This document shows positions 3,089 through 42,486 of a DNA stretch of 42,486 bases, piece by piece. Location of the stretch: positions 1 through 42,486 of the IMG/VR virus record IMGVR_UViG_2541047683_000004. One strand, written 5' to 3'. The stretch is from a virus (taxonomy: Duplodnaviria; Heunggongvirae; Uroviricota; Caudoviricetes). The notes under the pieces are model-generated. The model saw only the letters and a list, made by a program, of their open reading frames with translations. It ran no database searches and was not told where the DNA came from. Positions within the stretch are counted from its first letter, which is position 1. Every line of letters starts with the position of its first letter. A program made the translations under genes and the position numbers.

Positions 3089-3310
3089 GTTTTCCACCGT
3101 TTATATGCATAACTACCTCCTGAATAGTAAAGGCATTACGCATGATAAACCATTTATGGTTTTTTGTTACCCATGCATTGTCAATCCCCTTCCTTTCATG
3201 TCGATAATAAGGCTTGCCTTTTACATAACTCTGAAGAGATTGCAGTACAGAAATGATTCAAAATATAGAGGATTAGTTGAATTCCGCACCATCAAATGGC
3301 GCGGTAGCAG

Positions 3311-5817: not shown

Positions 5818-5920
5818 GTTAAATCTCCAGATAGTCGCAGCACCCGTTGCGCCGCATATCTGGTTATTCTATTACCTGAAAAACCATATATGGATAGAAA
5901 GGCTGTAAATACGAATAGAT

Positions 5921-5991: not shown

Positions 5992-6013
5992 TTATTGCAT
6001 GGAGAAGATTAAG

Positions 6014-6271
6014 ATGCAGCAGTATCACTATCCACTGGAAGACGGATTTACCGAAAGGATTCACACGCCGGGAGGCGTCAGGTCACTGGTGGAGGGATCG
6101 CACTTGATGAAATTACTCCGGGATCTCGATAAGGATGGATTTAATGTCGATGGCCCACTTGCCGAACTGACTGCACTGATTAACTACGTCACCAGCTCAC
6201 AGATGTCTATGCGGGATCTGCAAACACATCTCGACTATTGTGCCGAACAATTACGAAAACAAACCCGGTAA
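6014..6271 (+). CDS. Small SOS-controlled antirepressor-like protein (stand-alone copy of the shared C-terminal module)
   Basis: 85 aa; GGAGAAG RBS; aligns to the C-terminal 70 aa of the two larger antirepressor-like proteins (LM.LL..L..DG..V.G..AELT ... RD.QTH..Y). Confidence 0.6.
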   Translation: MQQYHYPLEDGFTERIHTPGGVRSLVEGSHLMKLLRDLDKDGFNVDGPLAELTALINYVTSSQMSMRDLQTHLDYCAEQLRKQTR

Positions 6272-6293: not shown

Positions 6294-7022
6294 CTATCGT
6301 TTCGCTTTGTGCTCGTCCCAGCACGTTTTGCACCATGCCATTAAGCCGTCCGCATTTTGATTATTAGGGTAAAAGCTGGTCCGTTTTCTGCGGACATTAC
6401 AAATTGGGCACCACTTCATATGGCGTGTATTCTTTGGGCCATCGAGACACCTTGCACACCACTTAGTCAATCCATCTGGATTTTTTGACGATTTCCGGAA
6501 TTTGTCATATGGAAGGTTTATTCTGCATCGCAAACACTGCTTGCGGCCACTTGAAACTCTGTTAGCTGATTCTTCTTTTGACGGCGATACAGAAGGTATT
6601 CTTGCTGGCTCTGATACTGCCTGAGGTGCTTTTTTAGATGACTGAGACGATATGTCATCACCAGGGAATCTTCCATGATATGCCGGACGCGTTGACACTC
6701 CAGGTGGAAGCTCAGCTGTAAACGGCTTTGGCTGAATCAGTTGCCTCTCTTTTGCTAACTCCTGCTGTTTATAATATGTCTGGATTACCGCACTATCATA
6801 AGCAGGAGGTGCGGAAATATTAGGCGCATTACCTCCAGTTTTTTGAAACTGAGTAGAGGTGTGTTCTATCACCTGTGTACGATTAATCGTTATCTCCCCA
6901 TCTTCGGTCTTTATCGTTTTGTTATGATTAACGACCGTACGATCAGAGATCTTAGTCTTGTTCTGGTTGATAACGTAAATAATCACCGTAACCACACCAA
7001 CAACTATCCAGAAAACTTCCAT
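6294..7022 (-). CDS. Membrane-anchored protein with C-terminal double zinc-ribbon (2 x CxxC...WCxxC)
   Basis: N-terminal TM MEVFWIVVGVVTVIIYV, Pro/Ser-rich linker, two Cys4 units; GAGGAAAA RBS; 5-prime cassette identical to gene 10832. Confidence 0.6.
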   Translation of the reverse strand: MEVFWIVVGVVTVIIYVINQNKTKISDRTVVNHNKTIKTEDGEITINRTQVIEHTSTQFQKTGGNAPNISAPPAYDSAVIQTYYKQQELAKERQLIQPKPFTAELPPGVSTRPAYHGRFPGDDISSQSSKKAPQAVSEPARIPSVSPSKEESANRVSSGRKQCLRCRINLPYDKFRKSSKNPDGLTKWCARCLDGPKNTRHMKWCPICNVRRKRTSFYPNNQNADGLMAWCKTCWDEHKAKR

Positions 7023-7041
7023 TGCTTTTCCTCACAATAAC

Positions 7042-7058
7042 ATTACCTTAAAGGTAAT
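7042..7058. promoter_or_regulatory. Operator-like palindrome (copy 2)
   Basis: attaccttaaaggtaat, 14 nt upstream of RBS of gene 6294-7022. Confidence 0.6.
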
Positions 7059-7134
7059 ATCTTGCTTTCAGGTGATCAAGCATTAAACGCAACCAACCAA
7101 ATACGGTTGATTTTAATATTTCTTCGCGTTTATC

Positions 7135-7151
7135 ATTACCTTTGCGGTAAA
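7135..7151. promoter_or_regulatory. Operator-like palindrome (copy 3) abutting putative -35 TTTACA of leader promoter
   Basis: attacctttgcggtaaa; followed by TTTACA-N17-CATAGT. Confidence 0.55.
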
Positions 7152-7186
7152 TTTACATCGCACTCCTCTTGTGCCATAGTAATCGG

Positions 7187-7262
7187 GCACTGGCAAAATC
7201 CAGTGCCGGGATTGGCGTCCCGGATTACTAAAAGGCGCATTCACCGCGCAAGCGGTTTTTTT
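7187..7262 (+). ncRNA. Candidate small structured RNA (two hairpins plus intrinsic terminator) in antirepressor leader A; c4-like riboregulator candidate
   Basis: Hairpins gcactgg/ccagtgc and ccggg/cccgg, terminator accgc-gcaa-gcggt-T7; conserved with compensatory changes in inverted copy at 10096-10174. Confidence 0.4.
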
Positions 7263-7419
7263 ATGCGTATAGCACGGCCACATTCGTATTATGGTGGGCT
7301 GTGTGGGGGCACCGAAAGGTGCGCCGGGTCCTTTTAGCCGGTTACGCCAACCCTGCACAGTTCACCACCAACCGATTGGCGTCGGTAGTGGTGATTAACC
7401 AGACTAAAAGGTAACCACT

Positions 7420-8115
7420 ATGACAGCTACAAAAAGCACGTCCATTTTTTCTTTCGAATCCCAAGCCGATATACGGGTAATCGTCATTAATGGTGAGCCA
7501 TGGTTTATCGCTTCAGATGTTTGTCGGGCTATAGGCATAGCAAACCATCGAGATGCTGTTCGAAAACTTGATGATGATGAGAAGGGCGTCGCTTCAACCG
7601 ACACCCCTGGCGGTGAGCAAGAATCGATCATCATCTCCGAGTCAGGCCTCTACACACTGATCCTCCGCTGCCGCGACGCAGTGACACCAGGCACTATCCC
7701 CTACCGCTTTCGCAAATGGGTTACAGGTGAGGTTCTTCCTCAGATCCGCCGCACCGGAAGTTACATTAAAAACTCGCTCCCGCAGGAAGAACGCATAAAG
7801 ATGGTTGCCGACCAGGTAGCCAACGCCACGGCGTCAGCAGTAATGCAGGCGATGAAGATAGAGAACAAAACCTACAGCGCCCCGCTGAAGCCCGGCTACC
7901 GCAGTCTGATTCATTCGCCGTCTGGTGTTCTCGGCCTGACGGAGAACTCATTGCTGATGAATCTGCTGAATCAGTTGCAGGACGACGGGCATGATGTATC
8001 GGGCGCGGCGGCGGAACTGACCACCATGTTCTGCTACATCGTCGGTGTGAGCAAATGCCTGCGTGATATCCAGACCCACGCGGAGTACATCAACGACAAG
8101 GCAGGGTTCTTCTGA
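7420..8115 (+). CDS. Antirepressor-like protein, Bro-N type N-terminal domain plus shared C-terminal module
   Basis: N-terminal SIFSFESQADIRVIVINGEPWFIASDVCRAIGI resembles Bro-N; C-terminal 80 aa nearly identical to gene 9289-9939. Confidence 0.65.
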   Translation: MTATKSTSIFSFESQADIRVIVINGEPWFIASDVCRAIGIANHRDAVRKLDDDEKGVASTDTPGGEQESIIISESGLYTLILRCRDAVTPGTIPYRFRKWVTGEVLPQIRRTGSYIKNSLPQEERIKMVADQVANATASAVMQAMKIENKTYSAPLKPGYRSLIHSPSGVLGLTENSLLMNLLNQLQDDGHDVSGAAAELTTMFCYIVGVSKCLRDIQTHAEYINDKAGFF

Positions 8116-8159
8116 CGGGCGGTGGCACAGGGATGTGCCTTTAAATAATTCTGTACAGA

Positions 8160-8188
8160 TTGCAGACTGTGGGTGAATAGCGTACTAT
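8160..8188 (+). promoter_or_regulatory. Sigma70-like promoter TTGCAG-N17-TACTAT for cassette 8263-9216
   Basis: Hexamers with 17-bp spacer; operator palindrome overlaps -10 and start site. Confidence 0.5.
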
Positions 8189-8203
8189 TACCTCAAGGGT
8201 AAA
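8187..8203. promoter_or_regulatory. Operator-like palindrome (copy 4)
   Basis: attacctcaagggtaaa overlapping -10/+1 of cassette promoter. Confidence 0.55.
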
Positions 8204-8262
8204 CGGATTGGTTTCATTTTTATTAATCCGTGTAATGAACTTATGAGATATGAGGTAATGTC

Positions 8263-8442
8263 ATGCGAAACGAAAAATTGCAGATGCGTAGAGCGCAAGC
8301 TGCCGCAAGACGTTCTTTCAATGGAAGCGTAGAGTACGTAAAAGTTACTATGACAAAAGATCACGCAAGTCGCGTATCCCGCGCTTTCTTTGATTCTCGT
8401 AACAATAAGGAAAATTATGAGTTCGTCTGCGTCGCAGAATGA
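8263..8442 (+). CDS. Small basic protein (59 aa), candidate antitoxin or regulator
   Basis: GAGGT RBS 6 nt upstream of ATG; overlaps start of downstream gene by 26 nt; not in supplied ORF track because under 60 aa. Confidence 0.4.
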   Translation: MRNEKLQMRRAQAAARRSFNGSVEYVKVTMTKDHASRVSRAFFDSRNNKENYEFVCVAE

Positions 8443-8962
8443 TAAAAATCAAATTGTCAGATATAAGGGTCGAGTGTTGCATACGCAAAATTTCTCGGCC
8501 CTTTGTGCATCTGATCTTGAGCTGAAGAAAGTATCTGATGCCTTTACCCAGTATTGGAAAACGGGATACCATCCATCTCTTGGTAAAGATGCTGCATTTG
8601 CTCGTCCGACAGAAATGCTTAAACTAAATGTCAGGCATACTCATGTCGATAACCAAGACTATATTCCAGAAGATAGTGATAAAAAACACACTGGTAAAAA
8701 ATCATCTTGGGATGCATGGAAAAATATAGCGTCTGTACAAGTAAAATGCATACCAACAAGTGATTGCTTTTTAGTTTATTCGGTAAATCACAATCGTGAT
8801 GCGCTGGTTATGTTTTTTGTTGACGCAGATGCTCACAACATAACTGAGCAAGAAGAGTTTAAAGAGGAAGCAATCACTATCAGTTATCAATTCTTTGAGA
8901 AAACAAAAACAGAACCAATGCCTTTAGAAGAAGATCTTTTTTCTGATAAATGGAAGGAATAG
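8417..8962 (+). CDS. AT-rich accessory protein, possible YafO-like toxin (tentative)
   Basis: AAGGAAA RBS; motif pattern F..Y...G..P..GKD, RHTHV, FLVYS, DADAH resembles recalled YafO-family pattern; visibly AT-rich versus flanks. Confidence 0.4.
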   Translation: MSSSASQNDKNQIVRYKGRVLHTQNFSALCASDLELKKVSDAFTQYWKTGYHPSLGKDAAFARPTEMLKLNVRHTHVDNQDYIPEDSDKKHTGKKSSWDAWKNIASVQVKCIPTSDCFLVYSVNHNRDALVMFFVDADAHNITEQEEFKEEAITISYQFFEKTKTEPMPLEEDLFSDKWKE

Positions 8963-8982
8963 CCCGCAGCGCGGGCTTTTTT
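8963..8982 (+). terminator. Rho-independent terminator
   Basis: cccgc-agc-gcggg followed by T6. Confidence 0.6.
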
Positions 8983-9054
8983 GTGGACGAAACAAAAGTC
9001 AGTGCTACACTCATTGACGCCACATTGAGGTGGCTTATAGATGGAAATTTCACA

Positions 9055-9216
9055 ATGAAAAAAGCATTTGCTGCACTGTTCGTTTTATTGTCTCTGGTAG
9101 CTTCAACTCAGGCCTTTGCCGGTCGTTGTCAGCACGACAGCGATACTGCTGCTGACGGCTCCCGCTGCGGTGGGCGTTCTGCGGATTCCCGTCCGGGCGG
9201 CGGTGGCATTCGTTAA
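9055..9216 (+). CDS. Small secreted Gly/Arg-rich peptide (53 aa) with signal peptide
   Basis: MKKAFAALFVLLSLVASTQAFA signal then 31-aa Cys-containing tail; weak RBS. Confidence 0.35.
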   Translation: MKKAFAALFVLLSLVASTQAFAGRCQHDSDTAADGSRCGGRSADSRPGGGGIR

Positions 9217-9239
9217 AAACAAGGCCGCGAAAGCGGCCT
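9214..9239 (-). terminator. Intrinsic terminator for antirepressor gene B
   Basis: aggccgc-gaaa-gcggcct hairpin followed on minus strand by T-run. Confidence 0.55.
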
Positions 9240-9251
9240 GTGACATGTCAC
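9240..9251. repeat. Perfect 12-bp palindrome GTGACATGTCAC (copy 1 of 3)
   Basis: Exact palindrome between convergent genes. Confidence 0.6.
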
Positions 9252-9288
9252 GATAGTTTCGTTTTGCACATCCCTGTGCCGCCGCCCG

Positions 9289-9939
9289 TCAGAAGAACCC
9301 TGCCTTGTCGTTGATGTACTCCGCGTGGGTCTGGATATCACGCAGGCATTTACTCACACCGACGATGTAGCAGAACATGGTGGTCAGCTCCGCCGCCGCG
9401 CCCGATACATCGTGCCCGTCTTCCTGTAACTGGTTCAGCAGATTCATCAGCAGTGAGTTTTCCGTCAGGCCGAGAACACCAGACGGAGAATGAATCAGAC
9501 TGCGGTAGCCGGGCTTCAATGGGGCACTGTATTCTTTTTTGTCTTCCAGCTTGATCGCCTCCATAATGGCGGGCATGAAGCCTGACAAGACCTTCTCCAC
9601 TTTTGTTTCTTGTTGTCTTAAACGTTTCTCGCATTCAATGAAGTAGCGTCGTACCTGACGACCTTTTTCGTTACGCTCGACCATCGCCAGCTCTTTGGCT
9701 GTATCGAGGGTTAGGTGGTAGTCTTTTGCAGGACGGCCTCTGCCTATTTTTTCCCGAACTTGGGAAATAATCATAAAGTCTTGATTTTCAACGAAGCCAT
9801 ATTCAGCAATTCGTTCGACAATCCACGAAGCAAATCGCTTACCCACATCGAGGAAAGTGTGTAAATCACGGGCATTAACGAGAAGAGCGGTTTCGTTGGA
9901 TATAGTGCCGTTGAATACGGGGATGAGTTGAGCGTTCAT
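9289..9939 (-). CDS. Antirepressor-like protein, AntA/Rha-type N-terminal domain plus shared C-terminal module
   Basis: N-terminal LIPVFNGTISNETALLVNARDLHTFLDVGKRFASWIVERIAEYGFVENQDF resembles AntA-type domain; C-terminal 80 aa matches gene 7420-8115; GGAG RBS. Confidence 0.65.
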   Translation of the reverse strand: MNAQLIPVFNGTISNETALLVNARDLHTFLDVGKRFASWIVERIAEYGFVENQDFMIISQVREKIGRGRPAKDYHLTLDTAKELAMVERNEKGRQVRRYFIECEKRLRQQETKVEKVLSGFMPAIMEAIKLEDKKEYSAPLKPGYRSLIHSPSGVLGLTENSLLMNLLNQLQEDGHDVSGAAAELTTMFCYIVGVSKCLRDIQTHAEYINDKAGFF

Positions 9940-10095
9940 GATGGCGTCTCCACTTAGCGAATTACATCACCACCGCTGAGACCAATCAGATGGTGGTGAA
10001 CTGAACGGAGTTGGTCTTACCGGCCTAAGTGGTACCGGCGTCCTTTCGGACCCCCATTCAGCCCACCATAATTCTGGCATGACTGTGCTATACGC

Positions 10096-10174
10096 ATAAA
10101 AAAACCACGTCTGGCGTGGTATGCGCCACTTAGTAATCCGGGAGACCAATCCCGGCACTGGATTTTGCCAGTGC
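10096..10174 (-). ncRNA. Candidate small structured RNA in antirepressor leader B (inverted paralog of 7187-7262)
   Basis: Same hairpin-hairpin-terminator architecture; terminator stem differs in sequence but preserves pairing (ccacg-ccaga-cgtgg). Confidence 0.4.
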
Positions 10175-10209
10175 CTGATTACTATGGCACAAGAGGAATG
10201 CGATGTAAA

Positions 10210-10226
10210 TTTACCGCAAAGGTAAT
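10210..10226. promoter_or_regulatory. Operator-like palindrome (copy 5)
   Basis: tttaccgcaaaggtaat, inverted counterpart of copy 3. Confidence 0.55.
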
Positions 10227-10372
10227 GATAGACACAGACAAACATTAAAATCAACCATATTTGGTTAATGCGTGTAAAAGAGCCAGCAGCGAGAAATTGT
10301 GCCGCGACGTAAAATAACGAGCATCTGCTGGCTTACAACCAGCGATGTTTCAAATTTGTCACTACTATCAAC

Positions 10373-10771
10373 GTGCCATTCCACGGCGCAGAGCTTTATG
10401 TTGTCAATCACAACGGCGAACCGTATACCCCAATGAAACCTATCGTTGAGGGAATGGGGCTAGACTGGAAATCTCAACATAAGAAGATTTCTCAACGCTT
10501 CTCGAAGGGTATGGTGGAAATCACCATACCTTCTGCCGGTGGGGTGCAAGCCATGATTTGTATGGCTTTACGAAAATTGGCAGCTTGGTTGAACAGCATC
10601 AGCCCTAACAAAGTCCGCCCTGAAATCCGCGACAAGGTAATCCAGTATCAGGAAGAGTGTGACGATGTGCTCTACGAGTACTGGACTAAAGGCCATGTGG
10701 TTAACCCACGCAAAGCTAAAAAGGCGTTGCCGGGTAAAATCACTACTGAGCAACAGGAGGTATACACTTAA
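10373..10771 (+). CDS. Antirepressor N-terminal-domain-like protein, start codon unclear (possibly truncated remnant)
   Basis: Segment LYVVNHNGEPYTPMKPIVEGMGLDWKSQ resembles P22-antirepressor-type N-domain by recollection; only GTG or internal ATG starts, no good RBS. Confidence 0.35.
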   Translation: MPFHGAELYVVNHNGEPYTPMKPIVEGMGLDWKSQHKKISQRFSKGMVEITIPSAGGVQAMICMALRKLAAWLNSISPNKVRPEIRDKVIQYQEECDDVLYEYWTKGHVVNPRKAKKALPGKITTEQQEVYT

Positions 10772-10795
10772 CACTTGATCACATTAGCACAAAAC

Positions 10796-10812
10796 ATTAC
10801 CTTTAAGGTAAT
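10796..10812. promoter_or_regulatory. Operator-like palindrome (copy 6)
   Basis: attacctttaaggtaat 14 nt upstream of RBS of gene 10832; part of 49-bp block identical to that at 7020-7060. Confidence 0.6.
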
Positions 10813-10831
10813 GTTATTGTGAGGAAAAGCA

Positions 10832-11359
10832 ATGGAAGTTTTCTTAATCATCGTCGGCATCGTGATTATTAATTTTGTTTTTTTATTTATTGCAAAAAAA
10901 CAAAAAAGTAACGATATGCATGTTTCTACAACTGATGATCTTACCTTTGTAGAGCATGCACTGAATGTATCAGGATATAAACTCACCCCATACGGAGCTG
11001 GTGTATCACTCATGTCTTTAAGTAACGGTTTTTCAAAAGAAGAAACATTTTCACATATAGCTTTGATGGCTCTTTCTCAACACGCCAAAGTCGCAGGTAG
11101 TGACGCAATTGAGCTTAGTAAAGTTAGCATTCGTGCGATGTCGATAGCTGAAAACTTAACTAAATTATTCAGGAAAGGTCTTATTCGATCAGAAATATAT
11201 AAAAATGATTTGAATGCTATCATGGCTGTCAGCACAATTAATGAAAACCAAGAGGATTGGATTTCCATAGTTCTGGAAAGCAATAGCACATCTAACAAGG
11301 ATACTATTGCTTTGCCGATAAGTGCAGAAGCTTCTTTAGAAGCCATAAACAGCCATTGA
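10832..11359 (+). CDS. AT-rich membrane-anchored accessory protein (moron), function unknown
   Basis: N-terminal TM MEVFLIIVGIVIINFVFLFIA then soluble domain; visibly low GC; shares promoter-operator-RBS-TM cassette with gene 6294-7022. Confidence 0.55.
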   Translation: MEVFLIIVGIVIINFVFLFIAKKQKSNDMHVSTTDDLTFVEHALNVSGYKLTPYGAGVSLMSLSNGFSKEETFSHIALMALSQHAKVAGSDAIELSKVSIRAMSIAENLTKLFRKGLIRSEIYKNDLNAIMAVSTINENQEDWISIVLESNSTSNKDTIALPISAEASLEAINSH

Positions 11360-35721: not shown

Positions 35722-35837
35722 TCTGGTTACTATCTTCAATTTTTCCGCCCCTTTTTGTTATTGATATTGGCTATTTTGCACAATTGGAAAATTTGATCAA
35801 CCAGATTTGGTTTTTTATTACCTTTGAGGTGCGAATA

Positions 35838-35887: not shown

Positions 35888-36118
35888 TCATGAGTAGAAG
35901 AAGTATGCCAGTTCTGCTTTTGAGCGCAGCCATTGTCTTGTTTTACAGGCTTTAAAAAGCCCATTCATCAATACCTTACCTGGCATTTTGCGCTTACCTG
36001 TTAAGTGAGTCTGGATATAGTGACTCGTCGTTCCGGCTTCCTGTGCGAAGGCTTCACGCTCATCCGGAGTAAGTGCAAGCCAGTGCTTTTTGAAATCGAA
36101 ATGTCCGTTATCGCTCAT
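35888..36118 (-). CDS. Cro-like small HTH regulator (76 aa)
   Basis: Divergent from repressor gene across operator-rich region; helix-turn-helix-like segment EAFAQEAGTTSHYIQ. Confidence 0.5.
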   Translation of the reverse strand: MSDNGHFDFKKHWLALTPDEREAFAQEAGTTSHYIQTHLTGKRKMPGKVLMNGLFKACKTRQWLRSKAELAYFFYS

Positions 36119-36272: not shown

Positions 36273-36857
36273 ATGAAAAGTATCCAGGACGTCCGCAGGC
36301 AAAATCTCAACGACTTGATCGACCGTGAATTCAATGGTGTTCAGACGCGGATGGCAGAAAAACTTGGAACTCAGGCAAATCTGGTAAACCGCTGGGCTCT
36401 TGGCAAGAAGGTTATCGGCGACCAGGTTGCGCGAAAAATTGAAGCTGCCGCCAATAAACCCCGTAACTGGCTTGATATCGATCGCTCGCTTTCTCAGGAA
36501 GGTTTTCAGCCTGTCGGCCCAAGCGACATTGGTCAGCTGGCAGCTCACAACCTGGAACGCTGGATGAGCGAAAGCCGCGACCTTTCAACACAGGGAAAAC
36601 TTCACCGCGCATCCGGCGTAGCCCAGGTGACAATCAGCCGCCTGTTAAACAATGAGGTCAGCGTTTCCATTTCCACCCTGGAGAATGTTGCATCCGCATT
36701 CGGGCGTCACGGCTATGAATTACTGATTCACCCGCACGACCCTGCGACCATCAACTATGATCGCTCGCGCTACGCATTGTTACCCGAAACCGAGAAAGCA
36801 AAGATCGAAAGTTACATTGAATTTGTCATCAACCAGAACGAAAAAAACAAACAATAA
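36273..36857 (+). CDS. Phage repressor candidate with two tandem XRE-type HTH domains
   Basis: Two helix-turn-helix-like segments (residues about 20-45 and 105-130); monocistronic between operator clusters; terminator downstream. Confidence 0.6.
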   Translation: MKSIQDVRRQNLNDLIDREFNGVQTRMAEKLGTQANLVNRWALGKKVIGDQVARKIEAAANKPRNWLDIDRSLSQEGFQPVGPSDIGQLAAHNLERWMSESRDLSTQGKLHRASGVAQVTISRLLNNEVSVSISTLENVASAFGRHGYELLIHPHDPATINYDRSRYALLPETEKAKIESYIEFVINQNEKNKQ

Positions 36858-41229: not shown

Positions 41230-42486
41230 TTATTTATTACTGTCTTCCATCCACTTCTCAAACTTCGACGGGGAGAACGGAATCAGATCCGTATGCTCCC
41301 CGTTAATCCAGGAATCAATCATATCGGCCCACTGCTGCAACATGTAGGCGCGCTGTCTGGCGTATTCCGCTTTGTTATATACGGCGCGCACACCTTTCTG
41401 CTCATGTGCCAGAGCCTTTTCAATCCAGTCTGAAGGATAACCAGCCTCATGCAACAACGTACTGGCTGTACGGCGCATATCATGTACAGTGAAGTCCTGA
41501 ATATACTCACCATCTTCATTTATTATTTTCACCGTTCTGTCGATCAGAGAGTTCAGTGCGGCATTAGATAATGGCTTCCGGAAATTGTAACGACCAGGAA
41601 CCAGATATTCACTTCCACCAGCACACATCTGCAACCCGACCAATATATCCTGTGCCTGTTTAGGCAGGTAAATAACGTGTGCCCGGCTTCCCTTCATGCG
41701 GTCTGAAGGAATTGTCCATGTCCATTTTTTAAAATCTATTTCATCCCACGTTGCATTGGTGAATTCGCCTTTACGAACCATAGTGATAAGCACCAGCTTT
41801 AAAGCCATTTTCATAGTGCCCATAGCACCAATGGCATCCAACGTGCGGAAGAACAGGCCAATTTCTTCTGGTGTCAGTGTTCGCTCTCGTGGTTTAAATA
41901 TGGCGATAGACGAAGGCTTAATGTCAGCCGCAGGATTAAACAAACCATGACCACGGTCATTGGCGTGACGGTATACGCTGCTGATGATCTCCCTGGCCTG
42001 CACTGCTGTTGCCCGGCCACCGCGTTCGACAATCCGGTCACACAAATCACGAACCATCGATGTGGTAATTTCAGCCATCATTTTGTTGCCAAGAACCGGA
42101 AGTATGTCACGGTCGATCACTGCCTGCTTCATTGCGCGGGTACTTTCAGCCAGGATGACGTGTTTCATATAACTGTCGGTATGTACCGCAAACGTTTCGG
42201 CACCACGAATCTTTTTGATACCGTCACGTTTAGCCGCAGCCGGTGACTGGCCTGCTTTAAGCAGCTTCTTTGCAGCAATCAGTTCTTCCCGCGCTTCTGC
42301 CAGGCTGATACCGTCACGCCCATACTGCCCGATTACCAGTGTTTCGCGGCGACCGTTGATACGGTAGTCATAACGAAATGAGACCGTGCCTGACGTAAGC
42401 ACAGCTACATACAGCCCGTCACGATCGGAGACCTTGTACAGTTTGTCCTGCGGCTTGAGGTTTTTTAATTTTGTATCGGTAAGCAC
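41230..42486 (-). CDS. Tyrosine integrase, P4-like; N-terminus cut by window edge
   Basis: N-terminal LTDTKLKNLKP...YKVSDRDGLYVAV pattern; C-terminal HDMRRTASTLLHEAG...Y catalytic region. Confidence 0.85.
   Translation of the reverse strand: MLTDTKLKNLKPQDKLYKVSDRDGLYVAVLTSGTVSFRYDYRINGRRETLVIGQYGRDGISLAEAREELIAAKKLLKAGQSPAAAKRDGIKKIRGAETFAVHTDSYMKHVILAESTRAMKQAVIDRDILPVLGNKMMAEITTSMVRDLCDRIVERGGRATAVQAREIISSVYRHANDRGHGLFNPAADIKPSSIAIFKPRERTLTPEEIGLFFRTLDAIGAMGTMKMALKLVLITMVRKGEFTNATWDEIDFKKWTWTIPSDRMKGSRAHVIYLPKQAQDILVGLQMCAGGSEYLVPGRYNFRKPLSNAALNSLIDRTVKIINEDGEYIQDFTVHDMRRTASTLLHEAGYPSDWIEKALAHEQKGVRAVYNKAEYARQRAYMLQQWADMIDSWINGEHTDLIPFSPSKFEKWMEDSNK

Follow-up and report, generated by a model that had tools for sequence, protein, structure and literature searches.

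In phages P1 and P7, the mature c4 antisense RNA is released from the leader transcript by RNase P. The c4 RNA was described in 1990, and both C4 and c4-a1b1 are among the motifs listed in PMC2864571. IsrK of the Salmonella prophage Gifsy-1 was characterised in 2016 (PMC4825925). In the isrK-orf45(STnc1160)-anrP locus, anrP translation increases 139-fold when IsrK is provided in trans (Hershko-Shalev et al. 2016, PMC4825925). Pairs G28:C162 and G31:C159 were described in the same work, as was a stable processed RNA, STnc1160, downstream of IsrK. Both IsrK and STnc1160 are abundant in lysogens (PMC7067206). Here we analysed a stretch of viral DNA of 42,486 nt (IMG/VR record IMGVR_UViG_2541047683_000004, hereafter the window), which represents a nearly complete epsilon15/phiV10-like (Uetakevirus-type) prophage of E. 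coli. Two antirepressor genes in the window, antA and antB, are each preceded by a leader of ~330 nt. Each of these leaders consists of an isrK RNA followed in tandem by a C4 antisense RNA. We consider it highly likely that each is a complete c4/IsrK-type (immI type) module, which silences antirepressor translation by an antisense RNA from the same transcript.

The assignment was made with Rfam covariance models at their curated gathering scores (45 bits for RF01695, 50 bits for RF01394 and 46.7 bits for RF03163). The C4 antisense RNA model (RF01695) matched over its full length, model positions 1-87 of 87, in both leaders, with 77.7 bits at 7287-7372 (plus strand) and 61.2 bits at 10073-9989 (minus strand). 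Both scores exceed the gathering score, which bears out the original prediction of a pair of c4-like riboregulators. The isrK model (RF01394) also matched both copies in full length and above its gathering score (77.9 bits at 7187-7262 and 67.7 bits at 10174-10098). Two 5′ hairpins, a Rho-independent terminator and an own promoter-like site, as described for isrK, are present, as are the C4 features, namely a long closing stem enclosing two hairpins, upstream a1/b1 boxes and an antirepressor downstream. The c4-a1b1 model (RF03163; 'a1, b1 targets of C4 antisense RNA'), which belongs to the same clan as C4 (CL00128), matches the same place as isrK. It remained below its gathering score in both leaders, with 45.1 bits (7174-7226, E = 2e-10) in copy A and 38.4 bits (10187-10135, E = 2e-8) in copy B. 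Since the isrK family models the same element, this shortfall is a matter of threshold and not of a different structure. In P1, the Rfam models scored 68.8 bits for C4, 51 bits for c4-a1b1 and 35 bits for isrK, the latter with E = 5e-6 at the a1b1 region. The IsrK small RNA (sRNA) is the a1b1 element with a strong terminator. The RNA of about 75 nt ending at the T-runs had been taken for the c4-like antisense RNA, an assignment that has to be changed: it is an IsrK-type RNA (RF01394) carrying a1 and b1, and the antisense part with a' and b' lies downstream of the IsrK terminator.

The two leaders, which correspond to inverted repeats I2-I4, align with a mean column identity of 86% and a few small indels. 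Each full leader folds ~4.8 standard deviations better than its own shuffles. The motifs on which the original prediction was built were all found in both copies at the coordinates given there, and pairing is kept where the copies differ. The terminator stem ACCGC/GCGGT of copy A (7243-7247/7252-7256) is replaced by CCACG/CGTGG in copy B, the GNRA hairpin GCACC-GAAA-GGTGC (7309-7322) by GTCC-GAAA-GGAC, and the pair CTGTG/CACAG (7299-7303/7356-7360) by CTGAA/TTCAG, each at the matching positions. The proposed three-way covariation of the elements X, Y and Z is real, and the three elements are the a1, a' and a2 boxes of the c4 system. In copy A (plus strand), X (ATTGGCGTC) is a1 at 7211-7219, Y (ACGCCAA) is a' at 7344-7350 and Z is a2 at 7375-7383. 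In copy B (minus strand), a1 is located at 10150-10142, a' at 10017-10011 and a2 (ATTGGTCTC) at 9978-9986. A third occurrence of ATTGGCGTC, at 17167, lacks a b box in its neighbourhood and was dismissed as a chance match (0.16 such matches expected per strand).

A second co-varying trio, b1/b'/b2, had been overlooked. In copy A it comprises b1 (CTAAAAGG, 7228-7235), b' (CCTTTTAG, 7330-7337) and b2 (CTAAAAGG, 7404-7411) on the plus strand, and in copy B b1 (CTAAGTGG, 10133-10126), b' (CCACTTAG, 10032-10025) and b2 (CTAAGTGG, 9957-9950) on the minus strand. The b2 box overlaps the Shine-Dalgarno sequence of antA in copy A and that of antB (GGAG) in copy B. In both copies a' and b' are exact complements of the target boxes, over 7 nt and 8 nt, respectively. 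The IsrK-A sRNA (7187-7262, plus strand) is composed of hairpin 1 (7187-7206), hairpin 2 with a1 in its loop, b1 and the terminator (7243-7262); IsrK-B (10174-10098, minus strand) carries a1, b1 and a terminator at 10120-10098. In C4-A (7287-7372, plus strand), b' is located in the loop of hairpin 2 and a' is single-stranded. Alignment with the annotated P1 c4 predicts a mature form of 7293-7369 for C4-A and of 10067-9992 for C4-B (10073-9989, minus strand), and the C4 ends in the window resemble the annotated P1 c4 ends (AU/GGUGG... ...CACC). According to the minimum free energy (MFE) fold, a2 is presented by a further hairpin (7362-7394, plus strand). The C4 closing stem uses the 5′ arm of this hairpin, UCACCACC, as its own 3′ strand, so that these two conserved pairings are mutually exclusive.

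The pairing was further analysed in natural leaders. A viral contig collection was scanned with a pattern that constrained nothing but hairpin 1 and the hairpin 2 stem, the loop being left free, and 85 distinct leaders were obtained. These were chosen without reference to Y or Z and contain 14 different 7-nt loop cores (a-box types). In 84 of the 85 leaders, an exact reverse complement of the loop core was found ~130 nt downstream and an exact direct copy ~160 nt downstream. An exact b':b2 complement of at least 6 nt was present in 78 of 84 leaders, with ~29 different strings, and b2 ended 7-12 nt upstream of the ATG in 71 of these 78. The a and b types assort freely among the natural leaders. 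A scan with the Rfam-consensus a box (ATTGGCAT), carried out to recover Gifsy-1, returned only two unrelated GC-rich contigs, in which the same triads are present.

Pair counts were obtained from a structure-blind MAFFT alignment of the leaders. The a1:a' (X:Y) pairs were formed in 92.8% and the a':a2 (Y:Z) pairs in 85-88% of cases, and in both helices 6 of 7 pairs showed changes on both sides. The local stems of IsrK and C4 were 95.6% paired, with both-side changes at 23 pairs. Among them, the 17-bp C4 closing stem reached 98.4% (11/17 pairs changed on both sides) and IsrK hairpin 1 reached 99.8% (4 pairs), while all five pairs of C4 hairpin 1 had changed on both sides. For the hairpin presenting a2, pairing amounted to 84.9%, and both-side changes were seen in 11 of its 13 pairs. 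The observed covariation scores were reached by none of 500 shuffles, and slid controls were only 23-65% paired. MAFFT does not correctly align the variable b region or the spacers rich in indels, and the unpaired cells in the a1:a' and a':a2 counts therefore overstate the real mismatches; the anchor-free exact-match searches give the cleaner picture. The pairing pattern is far beyond chance, and an RNA whose function depends on pairing, as had been suggested, is supported by the three-way box covariation. Indeed, all three members of both boxes change together, which argues that the a'-a2 and b'-b2 pairings are under selection.

From this architecture we propose the following mechanism. Transcription would start at two tandem promoters flanking a repressor-type operator, and most transcripts would end at the intrinsic terminator to give an IsrK-type sRNA of 76-77 nt, in which a1 is predicted to occupy a hairpin loop and b1 the unpaired stretch next to it. 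Read-through transcripts would contain the ~77-nt C4 RNA, probably excised as in P1 and P7, with b' exposed in the loop of a hairpin and a' unpaired. This C4 RNA is expected to pair with a2, presented in the loop of the hairpin that follows, and with b2, which is placed over the Shine-Dalgarno sequence 8-10 nt before the ATG. Such pairing would block ribosome binding, no antirepressor would be made and the prophage repressor would stay active. IsrK has the same a/b boxes as the target and may act as a decoy (anti-antisense RNA), relieving repression when in excess; with the b'-a' part of C4 it could form a longer, near-continuous duplex of ~30 nt. Specificity would lie in a few a/b bases, and each C4 would act mainly on its own ant gene. 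Duplex energies were calculated with duplexfold on the box segments and are rough numbers. For C4:target they amounted to -19.5 and -21.6 kcal/mol in the cognate versus -15.1 and -10.5 kcal/mol in the non-cognate combinations, and for IsrK:C4 to -30.3 and -28.2 versus -14.9 and -21.0 kcal/mol. Since the IsrK:C4 duplex is stronger than the C4:target duplex, IsrK could titrate C4. The Gifsy-1 results on activation by IsrK, on the two base pairs and on STnc1160 are in line with this scheme. RNAcofold of C4 with the target or with IsrK was discarded, as it returned a free energy difference (ddG) of ~0 for every combination, loop-loop (kissing) contacts being outside the model.

Several observations weigh against the proposed mechanism. 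In the MFE fold of the unprocessed full leader, a' and b' pair in cis with a1 and b1 and the Shine-Dalgarno sequence is largely open, so that repression would depend on processing or kinetics. The authors of the Gifsy-1 study explain activation by translation of orf45 and two alternative folds, not by a'-a2 and b'-b2 pairing, and in their hands co-expression of STnc1160 with IsrK strengthened the toxic phenotype instead of weakening it (PMC4825925). Furthermore, discrimination of C4-A on target B amounts to only ~4 kcal/mol in the duplexfold calculation. The Gifsy-1 mutants listed in Table 1D of the same paper, in contrast, speak for a third pairing partner. The a' mutants were most derepressed, with 484 and 926 units compared to 4 in wild type, and compensatory a1 and a' double mutants stayed at 224-327 units, 56- to 82-fold over wild type (PMC4825925). 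Why the double mutants do not return to 4 units would be explained by the unmutated a2 as a third partner of a'.

The Gifsy-1 explanation can be applied to the window itself. In that case an AUG at the 5′ edge of C4 would start an orf45-like open reading frame (ORF), IsrK would open its ribosome-binding site in trans, and ribosomes on orf45 would unfold the RNA and re-initiate at ant. Coupling of this kind is experimentally supported in Gifsy-1 (Table 1C, PMC4825925); copy A contains a 35-codon ORF that starts with the ATG at 7291 and ends 22 nt before the antA ATG, and the AUG is kept in 79 of the 85 leaders. The ORF of copy B, however, has just 3 codons (ATGGTGGGCTGA). Over the 85 leaders ORF length varies from 3 to >60 codons, and most stops precede the ant ATG by 76-121 nt. 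The conserved AUGGUGG forms the 5′ side of the stem that closes C4, and according to the alignment with the annotated 5′ end of P1 c4 the AUG would be cut in the mature RNA. A translated orf45-type ORF coupled to the antirepressor, which is a feature of the Gifsy-1 model and not of the Rfam isrK family, was not recognised in the two leaders. We regard upstream ORF coupling as unlikely. An even smaller probability is given to transcriptional immunity of the P4 type, where the C4-like RNA would pair with the upstream and downstream boxes, as CI does with seqA and seqC, and cause premature termination instead of a block of translation. An intrinsic terminator does follow directly after a1/b1, and the Gifsy-1 authors call IsrK a structural homologue of P4 SeqA and consider that STnc1160 may act like CI (PMC4825925). 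The position of b2 over the Shine-Dalgarno sequence in nearly all variants fits translational control instead; a terminator scan found no terminator-like site between C4 and ant, and the primary effect in P1 is translational according to the annotation of the P1 record.

Assuming antisense control of antirepressor translation in each leader, the specificity of the two modules can be compared. Copies A and B differ by two adjacent nucleotides in the a box (CG versus UC) and by two nucleotides in b (AA versus GU), the boxes being TTGGCGT and CTAAAAGG in copy A and TTGGTCT and CTAAGTGG in copy B. That a few bases set the specificity, as had been suggested, is plausible, but they would not be restricted to a single box, as the b boxes differ between the copies too. 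In a four-way alignment with both window leaders, P1 and P7 differ by exactly 2+2 nt in the same boxes. The distance between A and B is thus that of a heteroimmune pair, which makes orthogonality plausible. The calculated cognate preference is 4-11 kcal/mol for C4:target and 7-15 kcal/mol for IsrK:C4. Judged by this P1/P7 calibration and by the duplex energies, two orthogonal switches, one per ant gene, are plausible, not proven. With a lower yet appreciable probability, the modules might not be insulated at all and represent paralogues derived by recombination, with substantial cross-talk or mere redundancy and with box differences that have no functional consequence within one prophage. The small C4-A to target-B energy gap fits this possibility, and the region is mosaic, TL-2011b having an Arc-controlled ant where copy B sits. 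The convergent two-copy arrangement was found in at least 7 other viral contigs, and several of these related pairs (L026, L103 and contig 2728369554_9) have the a box in common, b being the only difference. The copies differ in at least one box in 8 of 8 dual-copy pairs, which is predicted by chance; because two random leaders share both boxes with a probability of 0.044, this difference cannot be used as evidence for selection. On the other hand, a difference of just this size, 2+2 nt, renders P1 and P7 heteroimmune (Citron and Schuster 1990, cited in PMC12197685), and all three members of each trio have changed together in each copy.

A more far-reaching proposal, to which we assign a rather low probability, is that the two heterospecific modules form a two-channel system for immunity and immunity escape and that the family as a whole is an RNA barcode network. 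The two antirepressors share one C-terminal domain and hence probably one target repressor. If the two-channel proposal is true, an incoming relative would be silenced only in a lysogen with both C4 types, and this phage could break through lysogens supplying only one of them. In a barcode network, for which the free assortment of at least 14 a types and ~29 b strings and the presence of the family in 46% of complete E. coli genomes would provide the basis, the a/b combinations would decide which co-resident or incoming prophages induce one another.

Two promoter-like sites were found upstream of IsrK-A by consensus scan, and both are identical in copy B. The upstream sigma-70-like site (TTGATT-18-TATCAT, 7107-7136, plus strand) is a putative promoter by analogy to the tandem c4 promoters of P1. 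The proximal site (TTTACA-17-CATAGT with an upstream TG, 7152-7180, plus strand) has a predicted start at 7187, which equals position 1 of the isrK model match. Between the two sites an operator-like palindrome, TTACCTTTGCGGTAA (7136-7150, plus strand), is centred near -44 of IsrK-A. The corresponding cassette of copy B (10181-10266, minus strand) comprises the proximal site at 10209-10181, the operator TTACC-N5-GGTAA at 10225-10211, the upstream site at 10254-10225 and a second palindrome at 10266-10253. TTACC-N5-GGTAA has 13 perfect sites in the window (5922, 7043, 7136, 8188, 10211, 10797, 26416, 29501, 33854, 33916, 36203, 36915 and 36977) compared to 0.77 expected, and three more with one mismatch (2950, 29483 and 36155), 16 in total. 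All perfect sites checked are intergenic; two of them are located in the cI-cro intergenic region and one in each leader promoter region. TTACC-N5-GGTAA is probably the operator of the main prophage repressor, like C1 at Oc4 in P1, in which case this repressor would control many accessory promoters. The second palindrome, AACCAAATACGGTT (7095-7108, plus strand), is located at ~-92 of IsrK-A, overlaps the -35 region of the upstream promoter and is possibly the site of a regulator. Its core, AACCA-N4-TGGTT, has 13 matches in the window versus 1.4 expected (among them 3148-3161, 5882-5895, 7095-7108, 10253-10266, 26364-26377 and 35799-35812) and is retained by 56 of 109 distinct related upstream regions at -92 of IsrK. 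It is often found 40-52 nt upstream of TTACC-N5-GGTAA, which suggests a reused composite promoter cassette.

The prophage encodes an integrase (41230-42486), a CI-like repressor (36273-36857) and a Cro-like gene (35888-36118), and also carries replication and structural genes. The product of antA (7420-8115, plus strand) is a Bro-N antirepressor of 231 aa (Pfam Bro-N, E = 2e-21; PHROG anti-repressor Ant), and that of antB (9289-9939, minus strand) is an AntA/AntB-domain antirepressor of 216 aa (Pfam AntA, E = 8e-28; PHROG antirepressor). Both genes converge around a 1.1-kb insert. In BLASTP comparison the C-terminal ~80 aa of both proteins are nearly identical, and the N-terminal domains (Bro-N versus AntA) are unrelated. 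The 3′ ends of the genes form a 279-nt inverted repeat with 94% identity (7860-8138 / 9266-9544), which encodes the near-identical C-terminal domain (PHROG 450). This repeat could support inversion of the 1.1-kb insert or gene conversion across it. The insert (8263-9216, plus strand) contains a YafO-family toxin-like ORF (8390-8962) with a small upstream ORF (8263-8442), a membrane-protein ORF (8950-9216), an own operator site (8188) and a terminator (8961-8977), and looks like moron or toxin-antitoxin-like cargo.

A stand-alone ORF of 90 aa (5999-6271, plus strand) is ~40% identical to the common antirepressor C-terminal domain; it has the same operator cassette in front, without an RNA leader, and is the counterpart of phiV10 p24 and epsilon15 p19. 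Its product might be a competitor or mimic of the antirepressors. Just past the leader B promoter, on the opposite strand, an ORF of 132 aa (10373-10771, plus strand) consists of the P22_AR_N antirepressor N-terminal domain only and may represent a third, truncated antirepressor-type gene. The ORFs 6294-7022 (minus strand) and 10832-11359 (plus strand) have an identical operator, 5′ untranslated region and start (ATTACCTTTAAGGTAATGTTATTGTGAGGAAAAGCAATGGAAGTT; 6990-7072, minus strand, and 10760-10840, plus strand) and enclose the complete double antirepressor unit as an inverted pair. Elsewhere in the prophage, a tRNA-Arg gene (anticodon TCT; 26753-26829, plus strand) is found downstream of the TTACC-N5-GGTAA site at 26416 and the AACCA-type palindrome at 26364.

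The distribution of the module was determined with a leader-only query; a longer query (7000-10400) was set aside, as it mixed in matches to the ant and cargo genes. The leader was detected in 279 phage records, including Stx phages, SfV, Klebsiella and Yersinia phages and APSE, and in 2482 of 5426 complete E. coli genomes (46%), with as many as 6 places in a single genome. Identity to leader A is 100% in dozens of E. coli genomes and 98.7% in phiV10. The duplicated leaders are a known and very common module and not a new kind of regulator. Concerning annotation, E. coli RefSeq and GenBank entries show only the Bro-N gene at this place, and IsrK and C4 are unannotated under the leader despite scores above the Rfam thresholds; in phiV10 the leader bears the label 'terminator' and, spuriously, 'similar to SF0880'. 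The APSE records annotate a 'C4 antisense family sRNA', an sRNA of the 'isrK Hfq binding family' and putative a'/b' regions upstream of the Bro-N gene. What is added here is the b trio, the explicit equivalence of IsrK and a1b1, the breadth of the combinatorial box code and the finding of two modules in one prophage that have diverged as far as P1 and P7. The latter provides a natural setting in which the specificity of RNA-encoded immunity and the cross-talk of prophages could conveniently be tested. Two bodies of literature, mostly kept apart, on P1/P7 c4 antisense immunity and on the Salmonella 'dual-function' sRNA IsrK, are thereby joined: c4 and IsrK appear as one homologous three-element RNA switch of decoy, antisense RNA and target, including an a'-a2/b'-b2 pairing that is absent from the published IsrK model.

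Among other immunity systems, the P22 immI region (Pant-arc-ant, mnt and the sar antisense RNA) resembles the window as a secondary immunity region controlling an antirepressor. In P22, however, sar is a true cis-antisense transcript and control is exerted by the proteins Arc and Mnt. No Arc/Mnt repressor ORF was found beside either leader among the window ORFs, by Pfam or by PHROG, whereas the relative TL-2011b carries an Arc-ant unit at the position of copy B. P4 immunity (CI RNA; seqA, seqB and seqC) can be likened by description, as a small RNA processed from the leader pairs with repeated complementary boxes that lie upstream and downstream in one transcript. Its outcome is premature transcription termination of the replication genes and not masking of an antirepressor ribosome-binding site. 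In the APSE phages of Hamiltonella (PMC7313666), RNAs of the isrK and C4 families likewise lie in tandem upstream of a Bro-N protein, in a single copy of ~71% identity to leader A.

Gifsy-1 shares with the window an IsrK-family sRNA, a processed stable RNA where C4 lies and an antirepressor thereafter. Its proven pairs G28:C162 and G31:C159 are equivalent to 7214:7348 and 7217:7345 in copy A, a numbering that matches a1/a' exactly. Read-through of the IsrK terminator makes the long form in Gifsy-1 and the antisense RNA is released by processing, as in P1. The orf45 frame of Gifsy-1 is not conserved in the window (35 codons in copy A and 3 in copy B), and the published Gifsy-1 model makes no use of a2/b2. 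The P1 record lists the operator Oc4 (C1), tandem promoters, a1, b1, c4, a2, b2 and icd/ant, and the a1 - a' - a2 layout ascribed to the window leaders by the original prediction agrees with this immI annotation and with an end-to-end alignment from the first hairpin to the start codon. The window thus shares with P1 and P7 the element order, nearly the same spacing, an antirepressor downstream and a putative box specificity of 2+2 nt. It differs in that the target start codon is that of the antirepressor itself, and not that of an icd-like ORF coupled to ant, and in that the antirepressors are of the Bro-N and AntA types, unlike those of the P1/P7 immI region (icd-ant1/2). The a1b1 element of the window is a strong IsrK-type sRNA with a good terminator, scoring 77.9 bits with the isrK model compared to 35 bits in P1. 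Finally, P1 and P7 are plasmid prophages, whereas the window represents an epsilon15/phiV10-like integrating podovirus with two modules per genome.

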